Origin: Promethearchaeota archaeon
GTDB taxonomy: Archaea > Asgardarchaeota > Lokiarchaeia > Sigyniarchaeales > SOKP01
Direction of reading: 5' to 3'
NCBI GenBank assembly: GCA_048938445.1
Contig: JBHLME010000006.1
Span: 1-62,541 of the forward strand
Length of the DNA: 62,541 bases
Under the pieces are notes generated by a model. It searched no databases and was not told where the DNA came from. It saw only the letters and a program-made list of their open reading frames with translations. Positions 141 through 35,329 of this stretch are shown here, piece after piece. Position numbers and translations under genes: made by a program. The first letter of the stretch is position 1, and each line of letters opens with the position of its first letter.

Positions 141-1187
141 ATGTCAGATATGTCAAATAATTCAGAGGACGCTAAAGTGGATTTTGATGAAAATGACATC
201 AATAATGGTGAGAGTAATAAGGATAAAGAAATATTGAGTAAGGACTTTATACCTCATTTTTTACCTACATATAGGATTAAAAGAAATTTATATCCCATTC
301 CCATTATTTTGGTTGTTGTTTTTGCAGGTATATTAGCATTTTTATCCTCTCCTTTGATACCAGCAAATCAAGGTTATATTCCTGGTGGAGATACAAATCC
401 CATTATAGGTTTATTGAATGGTTTAATATTTACTGGAACTGCGGTAATTTCTGCATTTGTTATGATATATTTTGCCAAAAAAAAGGGTATCGAAGTTTTA
501 AAGTACATTTTTGGATTTAGTATTGGACTCCTTTCTTTTTTTTTAACTTGGATATTTGGGACGACCATATTATTCTTGATTATAAGGGATGAATTTATTT
601 ATAGGATTGCTGATTTGATCTTAATTTTTTTTTCTGGAATTTCAGCAATTATCATGCTATATAGGTATTTCACTTCAAATTCAATTTTTACTAAAAATTT
701 CATTGTTCTTTACAATGGATTATTGACAGGTGCTATAATGGGTGTAGTTATGCCTCTTTGGACAACTCTAGCGATTCTAATTGGTATATCATGTTGGGAT
801 ATATTTGCCGTGCTTTATAAAAAAGGCCCTATTAAAGAAATGATTGATCTTGCTACTGAAGCTAGAAGTTCTGAGATTAAAGAAATTGAAGAGAAAGAAA
901 AAATTGAAAAGGGAGAGGCTGTTTATGACACAACCAAATTAGAAATTGGAATTGGAGATCTAGTTTTTTATAGTATGCTTACCTCAAGTGCTCTAATTTT
1001 CTCAAATAACTTGATTGTAATGATTTTAACTGCAATTGCAATAATTATTGGGACGGGAATAACCATATCTGGACTAAAACGCAATAAAATACTACCAGGA
1101 CTCCCAATTTCGATTTTTCTAGGAATCGCAACTATGTTAATCTCATGGGGTATTTCACATCTTCTAATAATTATTTTTTCTTCTTAA
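141..1187 (+). CDS. Presenilin-family (A22) intramembrane aspartyl protease
   Basis: About 9 TM segments; catalytic motifs ISCWDIFAVL and IGIGDLVFYS (GxGD); PAL-like LPGLPISI. Confidence 0.9.
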   Translation: MSDMSNNSEDAKVDFDENDINNGESNKDKEILSKDFIPHFLPTYRIKRNLYPIPIILVVVFAGILAFLSSPLIPANQGYIPGGDTNPIIGLLNGLIFTGTAVISAFVMIYFAKKKGIEVLKYIFGFSIGLLSFFLTWIFGTTILFLIIRDEFIYRIADLILIFFSGISAIIMLYRYFTSNSIFTKNFIVLYNGLLTGAIMGVVMPLWTTLAILIGISCWDIFAVLYKKGPIKEMIDLATEARSSEIKEIEEKEKIEKGEAVYDTTKLEIGIGDLVFYSMLTSSALIFSNNLIVMILTAIAIIIGTGITISGLKRNKILPGLPISIFLGIATMLISWGISHLLIIIFSS

Positions 1188-1394
1188 AATAAATATAGAT
1201 ATCTTCTTATTTCAATATTAAAATCAGTTAAATCATTCATCTTTTAGATTTTTTTATTATCGTATAAATTCTATCTTATATATTAAGGGAATTTGCAGTT
1301 AAAACAATTTGAGTGTTTCTATTTTTTACGCTCGTATTTTTCGTAAGAAATTATCTTAAAAAAATTTTTATACAATGCAAATTAACAACTATTT

Positions 1395-2582
1395 ATGGTT
1401 AGTATTGATAGAGTTAATACAATATCTGTTCTAGGTGCGGGAGTGATGGGTCGTGAAATTGCTCAAGTTGCACTTATGGCCGGTTATAAGAAGGTTTTTT
1501 TATTTAGTAGATCAATGGAAACAATTAATAAGGCAAAAAAGTTCATCGAAAATGGCTTAGTTAAAATGAAATCGAAAAATCTAATAAGTGAAGAAGTCAC
1601 ACCAGATATGTTGATGAAAAATCTCGTTTTACTAAGGGATATAGAAAAAACTGTTGAAAATACAGATTTCGTAATTGAGTCTGTACCAGAAATTATGAAA
1701 CTCAAGCAGGATATTTTCAACAAGCTAGGAGAATATTCTCCAGATCATACAATCCTCGCTACAAATACTTCAACTATGAGTATTACCCAAATTGCCGAGC
1801 ATTCGAATAGACCAGATAAAGTACTTGGAATGCATTTCTTCACGCCTATCCCTGTATTACGCTTGATTGAATTGGTCAAAGGAGAGCAAACCTCTGACGA
1901 TACCGTTAATATAGCTTTAGAAGTAGGAAAAAGCTTACCTGCTTTAAAAGGTAAGAGATTCATACCTGTTATTCAAAAAGATCGTCCAGGTTTTATTGTA
2001 AACCGTCTTACTATTACTTGTAATCTTTATTTAGATTGGATATTAGACTATGCAATGGATAATAACATACTTTTAGAACAAGTGGATGCTGATGCTGGAG
2101 ATATAACATATTTGGGACCATATGCAAAAATGGATTATTTTGGGCTCGATACGGTATGTAATACAATGAACTATTTTGCAGAAAAACTTTCACCTGAGTT
2201 TGCTCCAGGTAAAACCCTTTCTAGACTTGTCAATGAAGGAAATCTAGGTAAAAAAACCGGTAAAGGATTATATAAATGGGATGAAAATAAACCTTTAATA
2301 AGTAAAGATAAAAAAGCCGGGCTTTTTAATCCAGAAATGTATATGGCAATCCAATTGAATGAAGGATGTCGTCTCTTAGAAGAAGGAGTTGTATCCAATT
2401 ATAAAATGATTGATGATACCATGCTAGCAGGAATGGACATGCCCGGACCATTCGGAGCTGGTAAGAATAATTACGAAAAATGGACTAAAATGTTAGATGA
2501 TTTCGTAGAAAAATCAGGAATTCAATATTTAAAACCTTGCAAATTAATGAGAAGTGGTGGATTTCTGTCAATGCGTAAGTAA
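1395..2582 (+). CDS. 3-hydroxyacyl-CoA dehydrogenase
   Basis: GAGVMG Rossmann motif, IESVPE, ATNTST, GMHFF, PGFIVNR, LGKKTGKG; duplicated C-terminal domain. Confidence 0.93.
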   Translation: MVSIDRVNTISVLGAGVMGREIAQVALMAGYKKVFLFSRSMETINKAKKFIENGLVKMKSKNLISEEVTPDMLMKNLVLLRDIEKTVENTDFVIESVPEIMKLKQDIFNKLGEYSPDHTILATNTSTMSITQIAEHSNRPDKVLGMHFFTPIPVLRLIELVKGEQTSDDTVNIALEVGKSLPALKGKRFIPVIQKDRPGFIVNRLTITCNLYLDWILDYAMDNNILLEQVDADAGDITYLGPYAKMDYFGLDTVCNTMNYFAEKLSPEFAPGKTLSRLVNEGNLGKKTGKGLYKWDENKPLISKDKKAGLFNPEMYMAIQLNEGCRLLEEGVVSNYKMIDDTMLAGMDMPGPFGAGKNNYEKWTKMLDDFVEKSGIQYLKPCKLMRSGGFLSMRK

Positions 2583-2675
2583 CTCCTTTAAAAAATCTTA
2601 AATTTTAAATGATTAATTTATTTTCAATTAAGTAATAAATGGAAAACAAATTTTATCTCATTTATTGATGTTCAA

Positions 2676-2951
2676 ATGGATTCAAAGAATGAAGATACTT
2701 CACCAAAAACAGGATTTGAAAAAATAGTTAATTTTATTAACACGATTGAAAAAAATCATCCAATTTCAATTACCGAGGTTGTTGAGAAGACCGAATTATC
2801 ATGGACATATGTCAGAAGGATACTTGAACAACTAAAAAAAGATTATATTGGATTAAATTTTGAAAAATCTGGAAGTACTTGGATTGCTTGGAAAGATAGG
2901 AATAAAATATCTAAAAAATTAGATGATACATGTGGACACATGCTCAAATAA
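2676..2951 (+). CDS. Small winged-helix protein
   Basis: ISITEVVEKTELSWTYVRRILEQL HTH followed by a beta wing. Confidence 0.6.
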   Translation: MDSKNEDTSPKTGFEKIVNFINTIEKNHPISITEVVEKTELSWTYVRRILEQLKKDYIGLNFEKSGSTWIAWKDRNKISKKLDDTCGHMLK

Positions 2952-2990
2952 AGATAAGTCTGATTTTCTTAATATATTGAAATATTTTCC

Positions 2991-6004: not shown

Positions 6005-6718
6005 TCATTTACAAACGTTTTTACGATTAATGTCAATGATCTCGTTAATATTATATTCATCAAATTTGTCTAATAGGGCATCAATACCTTCCTTTAATTT
6101 TAAATCCATTTCTTCTTTATAGAGAGGTACTATTGCAAAGAAGTATATAATTTTATTTTCATCAATTTGAAGTTCCCATGCTTCTTCTTTTAAGGTTATA
6201 GGTGGTAATAGAAGAGAGCAGCAAAACTTAGTATTTGTTGAGAATGGTTCCGGGGGATCTCCGTTTGGAATCGTATGAGTATCCCAAATCCACGTCTTAT
6301 AAATATGGGGGAATCTTGCTAGATATTTTAACTCTCCTATAGGCCAGTAGTTTTCATCATCTTGAAAGGCATCCTCAGTTAGAGGCCAATCTTTAGGAAG
6401 GAAGACCATTAATTCTGCATAATTATATCCCTCTAAACCCTCAGGGGGGTTCATAGGACGATCGCTCATACCTGAAGTAATGAGTATTTTTATATCATCA
6501 TCTTCATGTGGAGTAACAATATGGACGTCAATATGAACTAGATCTGACTCGATTTCATGCAATACGAAATCTATCGTTCCTATATGTTTTTCAATGTGTT
6601 CTGATATAATTTCAATATTTTCCTCAATTCCGATGGCAGGTTCGAAATCTCCATCAGGTTCTCCATAACGATATATTGGAGCTCCTGATTCTGATCGTTC
6701 TTGTTCTTCCTTTTTCAT
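6005..6718 (-). CDS. Suppressor-of-fused (SUFU) domain protein
   Basis: HIDVHIV, ITSGMSDRPM, YAELM, WPI..LK.LARFPH, VPLYKEEM. Confidence 0.88.
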   Translation of the reverse strand: MKKEEQERSESGAPIYRYGEPDGDFEPAIGIEENIEIISEHIEKHIGTIDFVLHEIESDLVHIDVHIVTPHEDDDIKILITSGMSDRPMNPPEGLEGYNYAELMVFLPKDWPLTEDAFQDDENYWPIGELKYLARFPHIYKTWIWDTHTIPNGDPPEPFSTNTKFCCSLLLPPITLKEEAWELQIDENKIIYFFAIVPLYKEEMDLKLKEGIDALLDKFDEYNINEIIDINRKNVCK

Positions 6719-6806: not shown

Positions 6807-7373
6807 TTACTTTAGTATCCTATAGACTTTCAATATTTCACGGGTTAAAGTTTCAAAAATTTCTTTATTATTTTCACCCGATAATGAAGATGTCTCATAA
6901 AATTTTTCTATTTTATACTCTTCTAAAAATTTTTGCCCCTCATCAAATGAAACTACTCTTTTATCTATTTCTAAATCTTTTTTCATCCCTACTAGAATAT
7001 ACACTGGTTCTGTAGCATTTTCATCAACAATCTTAAACCAGTCTTTTAACTCCTCAAAACTCGAATATCTCGTAATATCATAACATAATAAACATCCTTG
7101 TGCTCCACGTGCATATCGTGGTAAAAAAAACCTGAATCTTTTTTCACCAGCAAAATCCCAAAGTTGTAAAGTAACCTTATAGCTATTTCCTTCATCATCT
7201 TCAATATCTAAGTGATATGACGCAAGATCGGTTCCGATTGTTATCTTTTGGGCGATGAACTTACCTGTTAAGAGTCTCTGGATCATGGTACTTTTGCCTA
7301 CACCACCATTGCCAACTACGACAATTTTGAAGGTAAATTTAGCTGTAAAACGCTTTCTTTCCTCTTGCGTCAT
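6807..7373 (-). CDS. Rab-like small GTPase
   Basis: G1 GNGGVGKS, G2 TIG, G3 WDFAG, G4 MKKD, G5 ETSS; RFRFFLPRYARGA RabF-like segment. Confidence 0.92.
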   Translation of the reverse strand: MTQEERKRFTAKFTFKIVVVGNGGVGKSTMIQRLLTGKFIAQKITIGTDLASYHLDIEDDEGNSYKVTLQLWDFAGEKRFRFFLPRYARGAQGCLLCYDITRYSSFEELKDWFKIVDENATEPVYILVGMKKDLEIDKRVVSFDEGQKFLEEYKIEKFYETSSLSGENNKEIFETLTREILKVYRILK

Positions 7374-8563: not shown

Positions 8564-10717
8564 ATGAAATTTTGCCCTAAATGTGAGAGTCTTCTTTATC
8601 CAAAAAAAAAACAACTATATTGTAAAACCTGTGGAATATCTTTTGATTTAGATAATGAAGGAATGATTATTCAAGCAAAAAAAAGGAAAAATGATAATTT
8701 TGATGAGAAGGACATTAAAAAATTATCATCTTCATCTCAATTTACAAAAAATAATTATTTAAAGTACTTTCCTTATAAGGAATTTAGAACATCTCAAGAA
8801 AATATAATCTCCCAAATCGAGGATGCTGTAAAATCAAGAAACAACATTCTATTAGTAGCACCTAATGGTACGGGAAAAACTATTATTGCTTTAAGTGCAA
8901 TCTTACCCATAGCGCTTGAAAAAGATTTGAAAATTTTATATATGTGTAGGACTCATTCTCAAAATACGAGAGTAATAAAAGAATTAAAAAAGATTTCTGA
9001 TTTTTTATCCACTAATGATATTGATCAGAAAATTCGAGCAATTTCTATTCGTGGAAGAAATGAAATGTGCCTTAATAAAACTCTTTTATCAATGAAATTG
9101 AATCCACATGAATCAATGACTCTGTGTAGTGATTTAAGGAGGAATAGAAATTGCATTCATTTCTTAAATTTGAATAAAAAAAGAAACGAATTTGATGATC
9201 CATTACTCATATCTCCTGAAATTTTTGATAAACCCATCGATGCCGAGGAATTAATTAATTTCTGTAAGGAAAAAAAGGTATGCCCATATTTTTTAAGCAA
9301 GTATCTCTTAGAAAAAATGAAAGTCATAATATGTAATTATCAATGGATTTTCAATCCCCATATCCGTGCTACTTTTTTAGAATTTATTGATCAACAGCTA
9401 GAAAAATGCATCTTAATTATCGATGAATGCCATAATATCATTGATGTAGCAACTGAAGTAAATTCACAGTGGATATCACCTTATTCTTTAAAAATTTGTT
9501 TAAAAGACTTAGAAATGTATCAATCTCAAATTAAAATGCAGAATTTTGTTAATCTCCTTTTAAATCACTTAGAAAATAGGAATAATTCTCTAATTGTCGA
9601 AGAAAAATCATTAGATTCACAATTATTCTTACAAAAGATATGTGAACGGTTAGGATTTTCTGATTTAAACGCATTTAAAACTTTTATTGAAGAGATGAGT
9701 GATTTTAGTGTTTCAATTCATGATGAAAAAGTAGCTAATGGAGAAATTTATAGAGATTATTTAGGTTCTTTGGCAGATTTCTGGTTAAAATGGATGAGAG
9801 TATATTTACAAGATAATTATTTTTTTTGTTATAGCGTAAAGGAAAAAAAAGAAAAAAAAACCATTTCCCTTGAAATAGTTGCATTAGATCCACGAGAAAT
9901 AGTAACTCCAATCTTGAAAAATTGTCATAGTTGTTTGAACCTTTCGGGAACTGTAAATCCTTATGTCTTCAATAACTTGATGGGTTTAAATGCAAGCGGA
10001 AAAAAATATAAAGGAATTATTGCGGAATCGCCATTTAAAAAAAAAAATATTAAAGCTCTAATTATTGAAGGAGTAGATACAAAAAAGAATAACAGGACTC
10101 CTAACATGTACAAGAAAATGATCGAAAAAATCAATGAAGTATTATTTTGCACTCCAGCAAATGTTGGAATTTTTTGTGCATCTTATAAAATACTTCGGGG
10201 TCTTCTTTCAAACGGTATAGAAACCATTGTAAATAAGAATAAAAAAAAAATATTTATCGAAAAAAATGGATTATCTGCTTCCGAAAATGCATTAATGATA
10301 CAAGACTTTAAATCAATGGCATTAAATGGTGGAGCTGTTCTTCTAGGCGTATGTGGTGGTCGAAATTCTGAAGGCGAAGATTATCCTGGAGATACCATGA
10401 ATTCTGTCATCATTGCGGGATTTCCTTATCATTTACCAACACCACGAGTAGAAGCAAAAATTAATTATTATGATAAAGTCTTTAATAGACAAGGATGGAA
10501 TTTCGCATATTTATATCCCGCCATTCAAAGAGCAAATCAAGCTTCAGGTCGTCCCATCAGAAAAATTAAGGATAAGGGAGCACTTATATTTATGGATTCA
10601 AGGTTTAAATCTAAATTAAATTGGATCTCAAATTGGATTAAAGAACAAGTTGAAATCGTACCTGATAAAAAAAATGAAATTACTCAAATTCTTTTTCCAT
10701 TTTGGGACTCAAATTAA
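8564..10717 (+). CDS. xpd: XPD/Rad3-family Fe-S DNA helicase with N-terminal Zn ribbon
   Basis: Q motif FRTSQ, APNGTGKT, four Fe-S Cys ending in CPYF, DECH, SGT, SEGED, QASGRPIR; N-terminal CPKC...CKTC. Confidence 0.92.
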   Translation: MKFCPKCESLLYPKKKQLYCKTCGISFDLDNEGMIIQAKKRKNDNFDEKDIKKLSSSSQFTKNNYLKYFPYKEFRTSQENIISQIEDAVKSRNNILLVAPNGTGKTIIALSAILPIALEKDLKILYMCRTHSQNTRVIKELKKISDFLSTNDIDQKIRAISIRGRNEMCLNKTLLSMKLNPHESMTLCSDLRRNRNCIHFLNLNKKRNEFDDPLLISPEIFDKPIDAEELINFCKEKKVCPYFLSKYLLEKMKVIICNYQWIFNPHIRATFLEFIDQQLEKCILIIDECHNIIDVATEVNSQWISPYSLKICLKDLEMYQSQIKMQNFVNLLLNHLENRNNSLIVEEKSLDSQLFLQKICERLGFSDLNAFKTFIEEMSDFSVSIHDEKVANGEIYRDYLGSLADFWLKWMRVYLQDNYFFCYSVKEKKEKKTISLEIVALDPREIVTPILKNCHSCLNLSGTVNPYVFNNLMGLNASGKKYKGIIAESPFKKKNIKALIIEGVDTKKNNRTPNMYKKMIEKINEVLFCTPANVGIFCASYKILRGLLSNGIETIVNKNKKKIFIEKNGLSASENALMIQDFKSMALNGGAVLLGVCGGRNSEGEDYPGDTMNSVIIAGFPYHLPTPRVEAKINYYDKVFNRQGWNFAYLYPAIQRANQASGRPIRKIKDKGALIFMDSRFKSKLNWISNWIKEQVEIVPDKKNEITQILFPFWDSN

Positions 10718-16611: not shown

Positions 16612-18474
16612 ATGCTAGCAATGTCAGAAAATAACACCCAATTATGTCGATTTTGTCAAAGAACAAAAAATTTAACTTATTATTGTGAGAATTGTGGGTC
16701 TTCTTGTTGTTCTGACTGCTTACATGAAGAAAAAATAGGATATTATATTTGTCAAGAATGTGATTCAAGAAATATTGAGATTTTAGATTCAGGAGATAGA
16801 AAAATATGTAAAGAATGTGGATCAGATAATGTGAATAAAGTTTCTCAACACATTAAATCTTGTCCAAAATGCAATTCAAATCACATTCTCAATATCTATG
16901 AAAAGAAGGAGGAACTTGAGCAAAAATTCTTAGAAATGATAAGAAATACGCGAAAATTTGCAGATCCCTTTATTGAACTTAGAAATAAATTAAGTTTTTT
17001 AAGAGAAAACCTTAAGAAAGCAAGAGATCCTCCAATCAAATGTTATCATTTTCCAAAAATGGAGCAAGAGTTAATTATTTTATTTAAAATGTTTAATGAA
17101 GTCGTTAATACATTACTAGATAAGATAAATATCCATTTTCATCATTTTTCTCTCAATCAGGATTATTTCTTTGACATATATGTTCAACCTAATTCAAGTA
17201 TAAGAGTAATTGAAAAGATATTACAAAACCTTATTAGGAGTTATGAATCAATTCAAGAGTATATTAATAAAAATATAGAACTCATTAAAGAGATTGTAAA
17301 AGAAAAACAAACAAACCTTCAATTTATTGAGCAAATTAATAATTATTTTCTTACCTACAAGAATGTTTTAAAATTGGCAACTAATGAAAAACCAGTTTAT
17401 GCGATTAAAGCTAAATATGATAATGGTTATAATCCACAAGGCGTTGTAAGAAAAACTAAAGGGATATTATTTGTTACAAATTTTGACTTGTCATTCGTCC
17501 ACTTATTTGGAGTGTTTAAAAAGAAAAAAGATTTGATAATAAAAACTCCGATTGATGATTTGACAGATATTCAAGTAAAAGGAAAGATTAGAAAGAGGGT
17601 ATATTTAGAATTTACATATGGAAAATATGAATTTTTATTACCTCCACGTACACATTCTAAAGTTGTTGAATATATAGTATTAGCAAAAACTTTTGATGAG
17701 AATACAAAACATAATCATGAGGCTGCTGAAAAACTTCAATCGATAGATCTAGATCTGAATAATCTAGTAAACTTTATCGAAGAAGCTATCAATACATTCT
17801 TTAGTTTAAAAGTTAAATATAATCAAAAATTCAATAATTTGTCAATCCAAGAATCAGAATATGGTTCACAACCATTTGCTCAAACTTATAATGAACAAAT
17901 TAATAATCTTCAATTTGGTAATATTCAAAATCAACAAAAAAACCATTATGTTCCACTTCCAAGTTTTCCACAAAATTCACCCTTTGATAATCAACCATTT
18001 TATCCCAATAATCCAGGAATGCCAACATCAACAAATTTTGAAAGAAATCTTGATAGAGACGACAGAAATTATTTATTTCGTAGGGTTGGAAGAGTTCAAG
18101 CAGATTCTCCACAATCTCCATCTCCTAGACGTAGTTTTAATAATGAATGGTTTCACAAGGCCGGATTAAATCGTCAATCTACCGTTGAAGATGTTCCTTT
18201 TATCGATCCGACTTATGGAAATTATAATAAATATCATTTATCAGATTATTTCGTTCCAAATCCACGTTTTACACAAGAAAGTAAGAGAATGAGAGAATTA
18301 AAAAAAGAACGATATAGTCTTAATATGACTTTAAAAAAGTTAGATGAAAAGTTCGATCATAATTTGATCTCAGAAGAAGATTATTTTAGATTATATACTA
18401 ATATACAAAAAAGAATTTCAGCAGTTGATGAGAATTTAGGGTCATTAAAAAATGATGTTTATGAAAATCTTTGA
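16612..18474 (+). CDS. Multidomain protein: multi-CxxC Zn finger, coiled coil, PH/GRAM-like domain, N/Q/P-rich linker, C-terminal helical hairpin
   Basis: Six CxxC pairs; KGILFVTNFDLSFV strand; low-complexity linker; C-terminal LKKLDEKFDHNLISEEDYFRLY. Confidence 0.6.
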   Translation: MLAMSENNTQLCRFCQRTKNLTYYCENCGSSCCSDCLHEEKIGYYICQECDSRNIEILDSGDRKICKECGSDNVNKVSQHIKSCPKCNSNHILNIYEKKEELEQKFLEMIRNTRKFADPFIELRNKLSFLRENLKKARDPPIKCYHFPKMEQELIILFKMFNEVVNTLLDKINIHFHHFSLNQDYFFDIYVQPNSSIRVIEKILQNLIRSYESIQEYINKNIELIKEIVKEKQTNLQFIEQINNYFLTYKNVLKLATNEKPVYAIKAKYDNGYNPQGVVRKTKGILFVTNFDLSFVHLFGVFKKKKDLIIKTPIDDLTDIQVKGKIRKRVYLEFTYGKYEFLLPPRTHSKVVEYIVLAKTFDENTKHNHEAAEKLQSIDLDLNNLVNFIEEAINTFFSLKVKYNQKFNNLSIQESEYGSQPFAQTYNEQINNLQFGNIQNQQKNHYVPLPSFPQNSPFDNQPFYPNNPGMPTSTNFERNLDRDDRNYLFRRVGRVQADSPQSPSPRRSFNNEWFHKAGLNRQSTVEDVPFIDPTYGNYNKYHLSDYFVPNPRFTQESKRMRELKKERYSLNMTLKKLDEKFDHNLISEEDYFRLYTNIQKRISAVDENLGSLKNDVYENL

Positions 18475-18516
18475 TATCAACTGAAAAATAATGCATTATA
18501 TCAAAAGGTATGAAAA

Positions 18517-19341
18517 ATGAGTAGTTCCAAAGAAATAGTTAAAAATACACATGAAAAATTAAAAATCTCTATGAAAAGAAAATCAAGAGCTCAGGTCATT
18601 TCTTTATTCTTAAACCTGCTTAGAAGAATGGAAATTGAAGAAATCACTAATTCTCATTTTTACAATATGATCGCTGAAACATTATCAATAAATCCGATAT
18701 ATTTCATGCATAAAATCTATCCACAATTAAGAAAGAAACTCGAAAAATTATTAGATTTCCAAGAGCTAAAAGATTTAGAAAGATATATCCTAAAAAAAAT
18801 TAGTTTTCTCCAAGGAGAAACATTTATTTATGAATTCAAGGGGCAATTAACTCAAAGAATTGAAAGAACAGGTAGCAAAATAGTATTAAAAAATGCAAAT
18901 ATTTACTTCACTAATTATAGGATGATAATACATTCTAATGGGATAAATATAGTATCTACTGAATCTGAAGTACGTTCACATTTTAAGAATGATTATCTCA
19001 GGAAATATTATGTTAATATGATTTTAAGTAGAAATTTTTATCATTCACGACCCTGTTTTGGATATGAATTTCCCATTTTAGAGCTTTATGATATTGAAAA
19101 AACTAGAACTAATGTACAATATACATTTCATCAAGGAGGGAAAAAACTTTATTGCGAACTGGTTCCAAAGTTTGTTTTTAACTTAAAGGGTATTGATAAA
19201 ATTCTGAATGACTTAAATAGTGATAACATCCCACTAACAAAGCGAAAAGTACCTTGTATCTCATGTGGAAATAATATAAAACTCAAGCATCAATATTGCA
19301 AACATTGTGGTAAAAAAATTCAAAATGAAGAATATAATTAG
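18517..19341 (+). CDS. PH/GRAM-like domain protein with C-terminal Zn ribbon
   Basis: GETFIYEFKG...NANIYFTNYRMII; CISC...CKHCG. Confidence 0.55.
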   Translation: MSSSKEIVKNTHEKLKISMKRKSRAQVISLFLNLLRRMEIEEITNSHFYNMIAETLSINPIYFMHKIYPQLRKKLEKLLDFQELKDLERYILKKISFLQGETFIYEFKGQLTQRIERTGSKIVLKNANIYFTNYRMIIHSNGINIVSTESEVRSHFKNDYLRKYYVNMILSRNFYHSRPCFGYEFPILELYDIEKTRTNVQYTFHQGGKKLYCELVPKFVFNLKGIDKILNDLNSDNIPLTKRKVPCISCGNNIKLKHQYCKHCGKKIQNEEYN

Positions 19342-19410
19342 CTTTATAAAATATAAATTAATTGAGTAAAAAATTTTAAACTTTTTATTCTCACAATCTT
19401 TATCTTATTC

Positions 19411-20433
19411 ATGAAAGAAAAAGATGGTTTATTTACTACTGTAGTTGGTAGTTTACCTTTAACAGATTCTCCAGAGAATATGATTAAAGGCTTTAAAGAT
19501 ATTATTGATGTGGGGATAGATTACCCCTGTTATCCACAATTAAAATCCATGATTACATCTTTTCTAGATCCTTTATCCGAAATTATAAATCCTCTAATAA
19601 AAGAAGGAAATCATTTTTATCTAAACGAGGATTTTGAAATTCCTGATCAAATAATAGGTTTAGAATATGGAAAATTTATTCTCGATTTCTTTAAAGAATA
19701 TCCTGATCTAAGCAAATGCGTCTTAGGAACAAAAGCTTGTCTAACGGGTCCATTTACCTTGGCAAGTGAAATAATTTTACGTGAAAATGCTGCAGAAAAT
19801 ATAAAAGCAATGATTTTTAATGAACCTCGAGCCTTAATGGTAGAAAGTTATGTTGAAAAACTCGCAGAGATAATGAAAAGGATAGGAAGTGCATATAATG
19901 ATATGGGCATAAACATCATTTCAATGGACGAACCTATTTTGAGCATAATTGTTGGAAGGAAGTCTTTTTTTTATGATGATAATTTTATCATTAAAATGCT
20001 TGATAAAGCAATCTCAGGGATTAAAGAACTGTCTTCAATTCATGTATGCGGAAGAATTAGTCCAAAATTAAGAGATCTTTTATTAAGTACTGACGTAAAA
20101 ATCTTGGATCATGAATTTCGCACTAGTGAAAGTAACTTTGAGACTTATAAAAAGGAACATTTTGAGAATACTGACAAGTTTATCGCAATGGGTTCTGTTC
20201 AGACAAAAATATCTTCAATTGAGAATGGTAACGTTAAAGATTATGTAGAAGATATCAGTTTTCTCAAGAATTATATAAAAAAAGGTATTGAACATTTTGG
20301 AATAGAGAATATAATAATCAAACCTGATTGTGGTTTTGCTCCCTTGAAAGAATCATTTGGAGAAAAGCTAGGTTATAAAATTGCAATAAATAAATTAAAA
20401 AATATGGTAATAGCATTGAAGGAATTAAGATAA
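19411..20433 (+). CDS. Single-domain (core) cobalamin-independent methionine synthase family
   Basis: TTVVGSLP, TGPFTL, MDEP, Zn ligands HVC/E/PDCG; no N-terminal folate-binding half. Confidence 0.82.
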   Translation: MKEKDGLFTTVVGSLPLTDSPENMIKGFKDIIDVGIDYPCYPQLKSMITSFLDPLSEIINPLIKEGNHFYLNEDFEIPDQIIGLEYGKFILDFFKEYPDLSKCVLGTKACLTGPFTLASEIILRENAAENIKAMIFNEPRALMVESYVEKLAEIMKRIGSAYNDMGINIISMDEPILSIIVGRKSFFYDDNFIIKMLDKAISGIKELSSIHVCGRISPKLRDLLLSTDVKILDHEFRTSESNFETYKKEHFENTDKFIAMGSVQTKISSIENGNVKDYVEDISFLKNYIKKGIEHFGIENIIIKPDCGFAPLKESFGEKLGYKIAINKLKNMVIALKELR

Positions 20434-20451
20434 AAAGATTTATGAAAAAAC

Positions 20452-21108
20452 TCATGTATTTAATTCTTTTTTAAGCTTCTCAATTTCTTCTTGAACTTTG
20501 GATTTAGATAGAGTAGCAGCATCTTCAAGTGGTAGTTCTTCTTCAGTAATATATTCTAAATCTTCTTCAGGTATAGTTGGCATGGCTCCACCTTGATCTA
20601 AAAGCATTTCAGTTTCTAATTGATTCAATTCATCAGTCACATCTATTCCTAAGTCAATCTCAAGATCACCACCTAAAATCTCCGCAGATTCTTCGATCTC
20701 CGAAACATATGCATCTGCTTCTTCAGATATTTCCGCAATTTTAACTGGAGATGCTCTGATTGCAATATCTTTTAACTCATCTTTTATTCCCTCCATTGTT
20801 TCTCCTGTGGCTAATATTAACTTGCCTTCTTGTATCGCATCGAGTTGTCTTTCAATTTTTATGCGCATATTCGCCGCGCGATCAACTTTCATGGAATATT
20901 GCTTGTATTGAATTAAAAAATTTTTAGCACGATCTTTTTCTCCACGTTTTAATGCAATTTTAGCGTTTTTTCGACTAATTTCCGCCTTTCTTGTATAATT
21001 CTTGTTAATTAAACTTAGCTTTTGAATGTGGGATTTTGCTTGGGTGATCATTTTATCTTGATTTTCATCAACCCCTTTTTTAGGAAATAATTTTTTTTTA
21101 AGTCCCAT
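20452..21108 (-). CDS. ESCRT-III Snf7 family protein (Vps20/32/60-like)
   Basis: Basic N-half with AKIALKRGEKDRAKNFLIQYKQY, acidic C-half with DELNQLE, MPTIP (MIM2-like) and terminal amphipathic helix. Confidence 0.85.
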   Translation of the reverse strand: MGLKKKLFPKKGVDENQDKMITQAKSHIQKLSLINKNYTRKAEISRKNAKIALKRGEKDRAKNFLIQYKQYSMKVDRAANMRIKIERQLDAIQEGKLILATGETMEGIKDELKDIAIRASPVKIAEISEEADAYVSEIEESAEILGGDLEIDLGIDVTDELNQLETEMLLDQGGAMPTIPEEDLEYITEEELPLEDAATLSKSKVQEEIEKLKKELNT

Positions 21109-27721: not shown

Positions 27722-28702
27722 ATGTCAAGCATAGCAGAAGATATCAGAAAAAATATGATGCTCCTCTTGAAAAATGAGGAAGCTAAAACAGATCTAGAAG
27801 GTCTCTCGATGATTTCCCGCATTGGAATGAAAGTAGTATCATCTAATTCAATGGAATTGGATGCTGATGCAGTATCTGCTTCATGTACTGCTTTAATCGA
27901 TTTAGGTGTTCGACTTTCAGATGCAACCAATCATGGAATACTTAAAGAAATTATCCTTCATAATAAAGGAGGATATAGTATAGTTGTAGCTATTAATGAA
28001 GAATATATTATTTTTTGTGGTCTTAAAACGCAATATCGTATCGGATATTATTTAGGATATTTAAGAGACTTAGCATTAAAATTAAATATTTTGTTGTCTG
28101 GGAAAGAAATTACCCTGACATCCCTTGCTTTAGAAGAAGCAAAGACACAAGAGGTAGAAATAAAAAAAGAGGAGGAATCAGAAGTCTCTACTCCAATAAA
28201 ACCCTCCGTGGAACAAGATAAAGCTGCATTGGACGGGTTGTTGAATTTTCTTGATGATTGGGATGCTGAAGAAAAAGCATCAATGGGTGTAGTTGAAGTA
28301 TTTGAAGATATTGAAGCGGGAGGAAATATAGTTGGAATCCCTCAAAGTATTTCAACAAGGCTCCCAAAATCTACTGGGGGCGTAGGAATTCCAAAACAAG
28401 CACAACCAAAAACACAATTTCAAGTATTTGATGACGAAGTCCCTCCTATTCCTCTCGAAGATTATACTCCAATGGAAATTGAGGAAGAGGGTGAATCTGC
28501 TCAGAATATTCCCCCTCAATTCTCACATGCTCCTGGAGAATTACCCCCACTAGATGAATTACCTACTTTTGATCAATTAAACGTTCCTGATTTTGAATCT
28601 TTAGCAACCGATTCAGAATATAGTACTGATTTTGTTTTAAATGAAGAATCAACAGCTTTGGATTCTGCTCTTAAAGAATTAGGATGGCTAGAAGATGAAT
28701 AA
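27722..28702 (+). CDS. Roadblock/LC7 domain protein with long acidic C-terminal extension
   Basis: N-terminal ~125 aa roadblock pattern (ISRIG, AVSA..TAL, G.LKEIIL..KGGY); E/P/D-rich tail. Confidence 0.78.
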   Translation: MSSIAEDIRKNMMLLLKNEEAKTDLEGLSMISRIGMKVVSSNSMELDADAVSASCTALIDLGVRLSDATNHGILKEIILHNKGGYSIVVAINEEYIIFCGLKTQYRIGYYLGYLRDLALKLNILLSGKEITLTSLALEEAKTQEVEIKKEEESEVSTPIKPSVEQDKAALDGLLNFLDDWDAEEKASMGVVEVFEDIEAGGNIVGIPQSISTRLPKSTGGVGIPKQAQPKTQFQVFDDEVPPIPLEDYTPMEIEEEGESAQNIPPQFSHAPGELPPLDELPTFDQLNVPDFESLATDSEYSTDFVLNEESTALDSALKELGWLEDE

Positions 28703-34786: not shown

Positions 34787-35329
34787 ATGGTACACAATCT
34801 AAATTATGATTATACTTTTAAAGTTATGATGCTTGGTGATGCATCTGTAGGTAAAACATCATTAACGATTAGATATATTTCTGGAAATTTCATGGAAGAT
34901 TTAAAATTAACCATAGGTGTAGATTTTTATTCTAAAATCATACAGTTTAAAGGTAAAAAAGTAAAACTACAAATTTGGGATTTTGGTGGAGAGGAACGTT
35001 TCAGATTTCTCCTTTCACAATATGTAAAAGGCGCTAATGGAGCTTTATTCCTCTATGACATCACGAATAAAGAATCTCTCGATCACCTTCCAGATTGGAC
35101 TCAGATAATTCGTGAACATGCTGGTCAAATTCCAATAGCTTTAATAGGATCTAAATGTGATTTGGAGGAATATAGAATCGTTCAAATAGAAGATGGTAAT
35201 AACGCTATACAAAAATATAATCTTGATGGATTCTTGGAATTATCTTCAAAAACAGGAGAAAATGTGGAAGAAGCTTTTAATTTGATTACTGCTGTTCTTT
35301 TCAAAAAGTATGTTCCTGAAATTTTATAA
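34787..35329 (+). CDS. Rab-like small GTPase
   Basis: GDASVGKT, TIGVDF, WDFGGEERF, SKCD, ELSSKTG. Confidence 0.93.
   Translation: MVHNLNYDYTFKVMMLGDASVGKTSLTIRYISGNFMEDLKLTIGVDFYSKIIQFKGKKVKLQIWDFGGEERFRFLLSQYVKGANGALFLYDITNKESLDHLPDWTQIIREHAGQIPIALIGSKCDLEEYRIVQIEDGNNAIQKYNLDGFLELSSKTGENVEEAFNLITAVLFKKYVPEIL

Follow-up and report, generated by a model that had tools for sequence, protein, structure and literature searches.

How the ESCRT machinery of Asgard archaea finds its membrane is the question raised by this locus. ESCRT-II and ESCRT-III reach the membrane in these organisms without Vps36 or ESCRT-0, and the protein family Znr_CC_PH_SB is the obvious candidate for the anchor. The window analyzed here is a stretch of 62,541 nucleotides from a Promethearchaeota archaeon (contig JBHLME010000006.1), in which a first-pass annotation had proposed a second, undescribed membrane-targeting route to ESCRT-III. 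We favor, with a probability of about 65%, another reading: the larger of two PH proteins encoded there is an early membrane-anchoring subunit of one ordinary ESCRT pathway, and the smaller gene is a genus-specific passenger.

Gene content and architecture of the 620-aa protein

Four genes make up the locus, as first annotated. Three lie on the + strand: the Znr_CC_PH_SB gene (16612..18474; 620 aa), present as a single copy in the assembly; a PH–zinc gene of 274 aa (18517..19341), which holds its position beside this adaptor only in genus g1; and a MetE-like gene (19411..20433; 340 aa) with the catalytic domain of cobalamin-independent methionine synthase (Pfam Meth_synt_2, E 4.5e-8). The fourth, on the - strand and convergent with the adaptor, is a Snf7 gene of the ESCRT-IIIB or Vps20 type (20452..21108; 218 aa; Pfam Snf7, E 1.3e-10). 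The distance of about 1.1 kb first given between the PH pair and Snf7, with a methionine synthase-like gene in between, is confirmed (1,110 bp from 19341 to 20452), and the reported lack of Vps4, Vps25, and ubiquitin genes holds for the 50 ORFs of the window in a Pfam scan.

In an AlphaFold model with a pLDDT of 82.8, the 620-aa protein begins with zinc fingers and a helical bundle, continues with a PH/GRAM fold and a disordered linker, and ends in an ESCRT-I steadiness box (SB). Zinc fingers and PH/GRAM had been recognized from the start; the SB had been overlooked. Pfam alone assigns the protein to no family, and neither PH protein of the locus, taken singly, matches any PH family of Pfam. 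The zinc module (aa 8–94; 16633..16893, +) contains six CxxC pairs, predicted to form three Zn sites, and is weakly B-box-like, with a ribbon insertion. In an alignment of 28 diverse orthologues, each of its twelve cysteines is present in 26 or more, and Pfam zf-B_box is seen, below cut-off, in 19 of 77 family members. A FYVE reading was rejected: the alignment has [YH]xCxxC and lacks a basic patch, the PI3P-binding signature of FYVE being a basic R(R/K)HHCR motif. FYVE is also not among the 25 commonest Pfam families listed for the 77 members.

The helical bundle, or coiled coil (aa 95–253; 16894..17370, +), has model helices at 95–138, 150–187, and 194–248, with pLDDT above 90. Searched as part of the larger model, it returned no BAR entry for a BAR-PH reading in the best 50 VIA-align rows or in the Foldseek rows listed. 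Matches to RhoGEF DH-PH proteins were rejected as a sign of a DH domain, the rmsd being 5–20 across the joint region, which is read as helices followed by a PH domain. The PH/GRAM-fold domain itself (aa 258–363; 17383..17700, +) is net basic (20 K/R vs. 12 D/E), as in most orthologues, and carries a conserved G300-x-x-x-K304 loop. In structure comparison, the model scored Z 13.6 against MTMR2 PH-GRAM (rmsd 2.9, 107 aligned), 13.3 against Lam6, and 10.8 against mouse GLUE; Pfam bPH_3 is found in 26 of the 77 members and GRAM in 10. A PH fold by itself is no proof of lipid binding.

Beyond the PH domain, the N/P/Q-rich linker (aa 420–552; 17869..18267, +) is disordered, with pLDDT mostly below 50 and a length that varies by lineage in the alignment. 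It leads to the SB, the ESCRT-I core helical hairpin (aa 555–619; 18274..18468, +). The three best PDB matches of the family profile are yeast Vps23 core (E 1.7e-5 to 1.7e-4), TSG101 follows at E 0.003, and Pfam Vps23_core is present in 15 of the 77 members.

Eukaryotic Vps36/EAP45, of ESCRT-II, combines a GLUE split-PH with NZF fingers and winged helices. The 620-aa protein likewise places a PH/GRAM/GLUE-type fold and zinc fingers in an ESCRT context, but its zinc sites are N-terminal, outside the PH domain, and give no NZF match; its model has no winged helix (the sole EAP30 match of the assembly is Vps22, on contig C109), and it ends in an ESCRT-I hairpin. With Vps23/TSG101 and archaeal CdvA it shares a C-terminal SB hairpin that is preceded by a coiled coil and a proline-rich linker, yet it has a zinc module and a PH domain instead of the UEV or the PRC barrel. 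Its N-terminal multi-cysteine zinc module, with FYVE/B-box-like spacing, and its adaptor-like layout recall Vps27/Hrs (ESCRT-0, FYVE), but the basic lipid motif of that FYVE domain (RRHHC), any VHS or UIM match, and a PSAP/PTAP motif (PSFP only) are all absent.

Family membership and linkage to ESCRT-III

The 620-aa gene belongs to the Asgard family Znr_CC_PH_SB (asCOG cog.011556), published, also under the name Znr_PH_CC_SB, by Makarova et al. (2024, mBio, PMC10936438). Three N-terminal zinc sites, coiled coil, PH, C-terminal SB, full-length orthology, and locus were all found. Over 97% cover, the protein is 44.6% identical (E 5e-180) to the product of ORF 876-2972 of locus L012, which corresponds to row As_088-p_02717 of cog.011556 in Table S2 of that paper. 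The Table S2 gene order also matches this locus (L35Ae, the cog.011556 gene, MetE, Vps20, DHQS); for Lokiarchaeum GC14_75 it reads GlgA, RidA, C69 peptidase, L35AE, cog.011556, MetE, Vps20, DHQS, GH57, CAAX. In comparison, the genus studied here adds the PH–zinc gene before MetE and a cyclophilin-like gene upstream. Neither the family nor this Lokiarchaeial neighborhood is thus undescribed, and the view that known Asgard ESCRT clusters lack clear equivalents of eukaryotic lipid-binding adaptors does not stand beside the 2024 description. According to that paper, the SB is a hallmark of ESCRT-I, Znr_CC_PH_SB is termed a likely ancestral ESCRT-I component for which membrane association is expected, and no Vps27 or Bro1 orthologue is reported in Asgard (PMC10936438).

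The family occurs in more lineages than the 50 rows of Table S2 show (PMC10936438). Matches were found in 217 of 251 genomes of the phylum at E ≤ 1e-8, and 203 reach E ≤ 1e-14; among the weaker matches, which were re-examined, 8 of 14 cover the SB part only. In genome searches the gene is apparently missing from several Asgard families.

An ESCRT-III gene lies within 4 kb of Znr_CC_PH_SB in 45 of 64 loci, representing 16 of 22 Asgard families, in a set picked by hand from the best matches, in which related genomes are not independent. Not part of this count are 16 loci tallied on their own and L126, where an f28 bin carries a second copy of f6-like type; stretches that were duplicates, fragments, or without an anchor (L090–L102, L104, L105, L107) were likewise left out. 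The arrangement is tail-to-tail in 13 families. Next in frequency come Vps4 (6 families) and Vps25 (5), while non-ESCRT neighbors occur in at most 5 families each. Six families (f3, f15, f25, f28, f11, and f26) show no linkage within 4 kb, those of f11 and f26 ending near a contig edge. The survey thus bears out the ESCRT linkage of the large gene, its conserved linkage to Snf7 included. In 12 families the adjoining paralogue is of the Vps20 type, but in family f8 (7/7) it is of the Vps24 type; the link is therefore to the ESCRT cluster and not exclusively to Vps20.

In other families, Znr_CC_PH_SB is part of the main cluster, which also contains Vps4, Vps25, Vps22, and the two ESCRT-III genes. 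The present assembly has two Snf7 matches. The product of 20452..21108 matches PDB 9fn1 ("Vps20/32/60-like") at E 2.8e-83, falls in the B clade of the tree (100/100), and is the only Vps20-type copy found; the second Snf7 (Vps24) lies with Vps4, Vps25, and Vps22 on contig C109. Since these four genes are on another contig, the locus looks detached from a single ESCRT cluster and not like a second route. Gene order suggests an ancestral cluster [Vps25–Vps4][Vps24–Vps20 >< Znr_CC_PH_SB] that was broken in two in this lineage, and further suggests that MetE and the small PH gene were then inserted between the convergent pair. MetE, a lineage-specific insertion separating adaptor from Vps20, was seen in this neighborhood only in family f1; it is missing from 4 of 16 close loci, where the adaptor–Snf7 gap is 66–157 bp.

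The 274-aa gene

The smaller protein comprises a helical domain (aa 1–96), a predicted PH-superfamily fold (97–235), and a single C-terminal Zn ribbon of two CxxC (244–268). The first-pass annotation had given both proteins a GRAM/GLUE-type signature and zinc fingers. The AlphaFold models back the PH folds, only moderately for the 274-aa protein, and both proteins do have zinc sites, although the plural fails for the smaller one, with one ribbon against six CxxC in the larger. The model (pLDDT 85.9) is a seven-strand sandwich capped by a helix, with moderate PH-superfamily matches (Dcp1 EVH1 best, at Z 10.0, rmsd 4.1, 117 aligned; Vps36 PH at Z 8.5). This superfamily provides the majority of the 50 best structural matches, with GRAM/GLUE or EVH1/RanBD as candidate subfamilies. 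Both the SB, for which the profile gives no match, and the N-terminal triple zinc module are absent. The nearest atlas clusters are prokaryotic proteins of the bPH_3 + zinc-ribbon type, which share the PH-like fold followed by a CxxC..CxxC ribbon, whereas the 274-aa protein has in addition a helical domain at its N-terminus and helices inserted into the PH; among 22 relatives, 5 show Pfam bPH_3, below cut-off. A recent duplication as the origin of the two PH genes was rejected: identity is 13% over 46 columns, and the adaptor PH profile misses the small gene.

Could this protein be a true accessory subunit in the genus, co-transcribed with the adaptor and widening its lipid or cargo range? The gene lies directly downstream and co-directional in 5/5 g1 genomes with a match, in two of them as a tandem duplicate. 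It has been retained at 36–48% identity, with pN of 0.30–0.39 against a near-saturated pS of 0.69–0.75 (a rough count), and its GC resembles that of its neighbors (0.265 vs. 0.273). However, synteny within a genus is expected from descent, and MetE fills the same slot more widely. The co-directional pair first noted is thus real, but genus-specific: the gene is absent beside the adaptor in 16/16 close loci, relatives in genera g2 and g5 lie at unrelated sites (12/12 fetched stretches of 6–18 kb without adaptor or Snf7), and the family is patchy (40/121 genomes of the order, mainly family f1). Similarity to the adaptor PH is confined to the 46 columns, at a probability of 57%. An accessory subunit is therefore improbable, and the gene is likely a genus-specific passenger.

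A proposed membrane anchor for ESCRT-II

Hatano et al. (2022, PMC9192718) report a yeast two-hybrid interaction of Vps25 with ESCRT-IIIB, and also that Vps22 is bound by a steadiness-box protein of Loki that stands on its own; they found no Vps36 homologue. In the favored reading, the basic PH/GRAM domain, a plausible membrane-targeting module as first proposed, would bind anionic membrane lipids. The SB, on its long flexible tether, could then pair with other SB hairpins: those of ESCRT-I subunits, the N-terminus of Asgard Vps22, reported to be SB-like, or its own. Such pairing would bring ESCRT-II (Vps22–Vps25) to the membrane, where Vps25 would nucleate Vps20, following the canonical sequence of events. 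For the zinc module and the helical bundle, the probable ligands would be cargo, a regulator, or another copy of the protein itself. In family f22, the Znr_CC_PH_SB head is fused to a Vps22-type winged-helix core that replaces the SB; this naturally occurring fusion suggests ESCRT-II as the functional partner. Counting against the favored reading are the convergent orientation of adaptor and Vps20, since convergent genes are not co-transcribed, the 6 of 22 families without linkage, and the several families that seem to lack the gene.

A bolder version, possible but tentative, makes Znr_CC_PH_SB the "missing Vps36" of Asgard archaea in trans, its PH and zinc head anchoring ESCRT-II to archaeal lipids through an SB–Vps22 plug for which the f22 fusion would be the covalent link; in g1, the second PH protein may tune this anchor. 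Compared as profiles, the SB and the Vps22 N-terminus showed only a weak match (probability 8.6%, E 0.004; control Snf7, 2.2%, E 0.02), a point against the favored reading, and comparisons with the Vps25 and Vps22 N-termini together were weak or nil.

Less probable, though nearest to the first-pass proposal, is a direct, CdvA- or ALIX-like route, in which copies of the 620-aa protein would assemble on the membrane by way of the SB and recruit Vps20 themselves, bypassing ESCRT-II. In the predicted model, the SB hairpin can be superposed on the filament subunit of Sulfolobus CdvA (Z 11.2, rmsd 1.1, 68 aa), but the hairpin match is common to Vps23/TSG101 and short helical segments match without specificity. 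The part of CdvB that CdvA binds is a winged helix, whereas the window Vps20 aligns over its full length with the 9fn1 chain of 218 aa, without a CdvB-like winged-helix extension. In families f1 and f2, where the cluster has split, the gene remained with Vps20 and not with Vps22/Vps25; in family f8, however, it stayed beside Vps24, with Vps20 elsewhere, and the f22 fusion unites the head with the ESCRT-II core. Complex prediction for the full 620-aa protein with the window Vps20 scored 0.00 in both runs (77- and 28-row alignments; controls were not folded), a result that speaks neither for nor against an interaction. In line with the direct route, and against the favored reading, the assembly (96.5% complete) yielded neither a canonical Vps28 nor a UEV-Vps23, so that the usual SB partners may be missing; the Vps23_core genome search gave zero matches even in the controls and so carries no weight here.

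Least probable of all, the linkage would be a historical relic and the protein part of another membrane process (e.g., a small-GTPase effector) with an SB only for oligomerization: 6/22 families are unlinked within 4 kb, the SB is degenerate in f6 and f15, and many PH-superfamily domains, some among both models' structural matches, bind proteins and not lipids, but flanking non-ESCRT genes all turn over between families while the ESCRT-III neighbor stays, the SB is the ESCRT-I hallmark (PMC10936438), and the f22 protein, with its Vps22 core, also indicates an ESCRT role.

The window itself adds little, because the family, its ESCRT-I-like reading, and the locus are already in print; new here are the count of the depth of the tail-to-tail link and the evidence for the second PH gene as a local addition. 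No experimental study of cog.011556 and no binding or lipid data were found in the literature covered, namely papers outside subscription, so Znr_CC_PH_SB is a good experimental target. If the in-trans Vps36 reading is true, ESCRT-II would have had a lipid-reading anchor since the Asgard ancestor.

The adaptor gene and its published family

All four ORFs of the first-pass annotation are present as claimed: genes for proteins of 620 aa (16612..18474, +) and 274 aa (18517..19341, +), a third that Pfam assigns to the cobalamin-independent methionine-synthase domain (MetE-like; 19411..20433, +), and a fourth assigned to Snf7 (20452..21108, −). The 620-aa protein has zero Pfam family matches, and for the 274-aa protein Pfam gives a weak zinc ribbon and nothing else. 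The 620-aa gene is a further member of Znr_CC_PH_SB (asCOG cog.011556). The proposed ESCRT-linked adaptor is real and deeply conserved but not novel, its family and locus having been in print since 2024 (PMC10936438). The family is described there as lacking in eukaryotes and probably ancestral to Asgard archaea, and is rated a likely ESCRT-I component with expected membrane association (Makarova et al., 2024; PMC10936438). It fills 50 rows of Table S2 in that paper, one of which (YT_5_bins.1216, 876..2972, +) is the ORF of our locus L012; the window protein is 44.6% identical to it, with 97% of the length covered. The Lokiarchaeum GC14_75 entry (GlgA, RidA, C69 peptidase, L35AE, cog.011556, MetE, Vps20, DHQS, GH57, CAAX protease) has the same gene order as the window (PMC10936438). 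Lu et al. (10.1101/2023.07.25.550441) treat cog.011556 as a steadiness-box (SB) family, and our literature search found no experimental studies of it.

In an AlphaFold model built with 77 relatives (pLDDT 82.8), a zinc-binding beta region at aa 8-94 is followed by three long helices (95-253), a PH sandwich (258-363), an additional helical segment (369-416), an N/P/Q-rich linker, disordered for the most part (420-552), and a helical hairpin (555-619). In structure comparisons of the model, the PH domain, which is basic (20 K/R versus 12 D/E), matched MTMR2 PH-GRAM (Z 13.6, rmsd 2.9, 107 aligned), Lam6 (Z 13.3) and mouse GLUE (Z 10.8). The hairpin is a steadiness box, because the family profile has the yeast Vps23 core as its top three PDB matches (E 1.7e-5 to 1.7e-4), Pfam Vps23_core matches occur in 15/77 members, and the hairpin superposes on CdvA (Z 11.2, rmsd 1.1, 68 aa); the PDB profile search also matched TSG101 (E 0.003). 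Each of the twelve zinc-module cysteines is conserved in 26 or more of the 28 diverse orthologues aligned. Their spacing resembles that of FYVE and B-box modules, but the basic motif that marks FYVE domains is missing from the alignment of these orthologues. In the diverged orthologues of families f6 and f15 (L108-L112, L115-L119), the zinc, helical and PH parts are retained and the C-terminal hairpin is degenerate.

Linkage to ESCRT-III and a probable split cluster

The adaptor profile matches 217/251 genomes of the phylum at E<=1e-8 and, by our count, 203 at E<=1e-14; since 8/14 re-examined weaker matches cover the SB part alone, several families appear to be without the gene. Among 16 close loci, a convergent Snf7 lies 66-1,187 bp past the adaptor in 15, the remaining locus stopping at a contig edge, and MetE is missing between the two in four. 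The conserved linkage to Snf7 anticipated for other genomes was found: of 64 loci hand-picked over 22 families, 45 loci from 16 families have an ESCRT-III gene no more than 4 kb from the adaptor. As loci were not chosen at random and kin are not independent, these counts show how deep the conservation goes and are no statistical test. In this sample, the next commonest neighbours are Vps4 (6 families) and Vps25 (5), with non-ESCRT clusters reaching 5 families at most. The two genes meet tail-to-tail in 13 families, share a strand in f6 and f10, and diverge in f23. The adjoining paralogue is of Vps20/B type in 12 families and of Vps24/A type in f8 (7/7). Within 4 kb, linkage was not seen in the sampled loci of f3, f15, f25 and f28, or in those of f11 and f26, where contigs terminate close by.

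The window Snf7 is of B type (PDB 9fn1, E 2.8e-83; structure deposited by PMC11791191). The assembly (4.6 Mb, 256 contigs, 96.5% complete, 8.2% contaminated) has a second Snf7, of Vps24 type, on contig C109, grouped with Vps4 (called by sequence and gene order), Vps25 and Vps22 (G000:C109:18308-22037 = L059:10309-14038) as the remaining half of the cluster. A single ancestral ESCRT cluster that split is the simplest history, rather than the second route to ESCRT-III that had been suggested.

A HerA-like ATPase (Pfam DUF87, 890-1010 aa) lies inside the ESCRT cluster at L029, L030, L034, L035, L054, L102, L106 and L121 (families f5, f9, f19, f20 and f22), between both ESCRT-III genes in four families and immediately past Vps24 in f22. 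HerA genes appear in the ESCRT neighbourhoods of Table S2, unmarked as components (PMC10936438). This may be an overlooked ESCRT-linked ATPase; a full-length copy was not found in the window's assembly.

The 274-aa PH gene and other window genes

In the model of the 274-aa protein (22 sequences, pLDDT 85.9), a helical N-domain precedes a PH-superfamily fold that carries a helical insertion, and a single zinc ribbon lies at the C-terminus; the protein's best structural match (Z 10.0) places it at superfamily, not subfamily, level. No steadiness box was found in it, and sequence/profile comparison rejected a recent duplication of the adaptor PH domain. The co-directional PH/Zn pair stands in the window but is confined to one genus: relatives occur in 40/121 genomes of the order, and the gene directly follows the adaptor in 5/5 genus-g1 genomes with a match (tandem copies in two), whereas neither adaptor nor Snf7 is present in any of the 12 loci fetched from g2 and g5, and 0/16 close adaptor loci contain the gene. 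A rough count (pN 0.30-0.39 versus pS about 0.7) suggests constraint on the gene. The best reading is that of a mobile PH-family gene which became fixed at the adaptor-MetE slot in one genus, an insertion like the more widespread MetE; a true accessory partner of the adaptor, for which the invariant g1 placement might speak, seems quite improbable given this distribution.

Elsewhere in the window, Pfam identifies a presenilin/signal-peptide-peptidase-like gene (141-1187), a SUFU-domain gene (6005-6718) and two Ras/Rab-like small GTPases (6807-7373, 34787-35329). An XPD/Rad3-type helicase (8564-10717) has an RPB9-like zinc ribbon at its N-terminus; among its relatives, some carry the ribbon too (L045) and others seem to begin downstream of it (L013). 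A gene kept across family f1 (27722-28702) encodes a 326-aa product with an acidic proline-rich tail and no match in a Pfam search; its N-terminus, judged by eye, may be roadblock-like.

Possible mode of action

In two f22 orthologues (L037:8001-9806, L103:9025-10842; genomes G053 and G044), a Vps22-type EAP30 winged-helix core replaces the SB, and a separate Vps22 is retained next to the fusion gene. Three full-length database proteins with such a fusion were found. Its domain set is Vps36-like, and Vps36 was not found by Hatano (2022; PMC9192718); the fused core is nearer Vps22 than Vps36 (PDB, E 1e-6 versus 5e-4), with about 35% identity to the same genome's Vps22. That Znr_CC_PH_SB supplies the Vps36 function in trans is a tentative reading. 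Direct recruitment of Vps20 by the adaptor, in the manner of the CdvA on which its hairpin superposes, is unlikely. A role outside ESCRT, with which the f15 copies (no ESCRT gene seen within 4 kb) would agree and the linkage in 16 families would not, is very improbable.

Recruitment through early ESCRT subunits is supported by the f22 fusion and by published binding results: Vps25 binds ESCRT-IIIB, and a free-standing Loki SB protein bound Vps22 in two-hybrid assays (Hatano, 2022; PMC9192718). Makarova et al. (2024; PMC10936438) report that HHpred supports the presence of an SB in one Vps22, that of a Thorarchaeal genome. Two points count against such recruitment: the comparison between the adaptor SB and Vps22 was weak, and canonical Vps23/UEV-Vps23 and Vps28 were not found in the window's assembly. 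That assembly has two further proteins with weak C-terminal SB matches (E about 5e-4; G000:C70:7510-9417 and C254:6887-8728), one of which has a helix-hairpin-helix domain at its start. It also encodes a UFL1/PCI-like protein of 790 aa with Vps28-C at its end (G000:C127:15257-17629). We favor, with a probability of about 0.65, a mechanism in which the adaptor's basic PH domain would bind anionic lipid and its tethered steadiness box would pair with SB-bearing early ESCRT subunits, so that first Vps22-Vps25 and then Vps20 would assemble where the adaptor sits.
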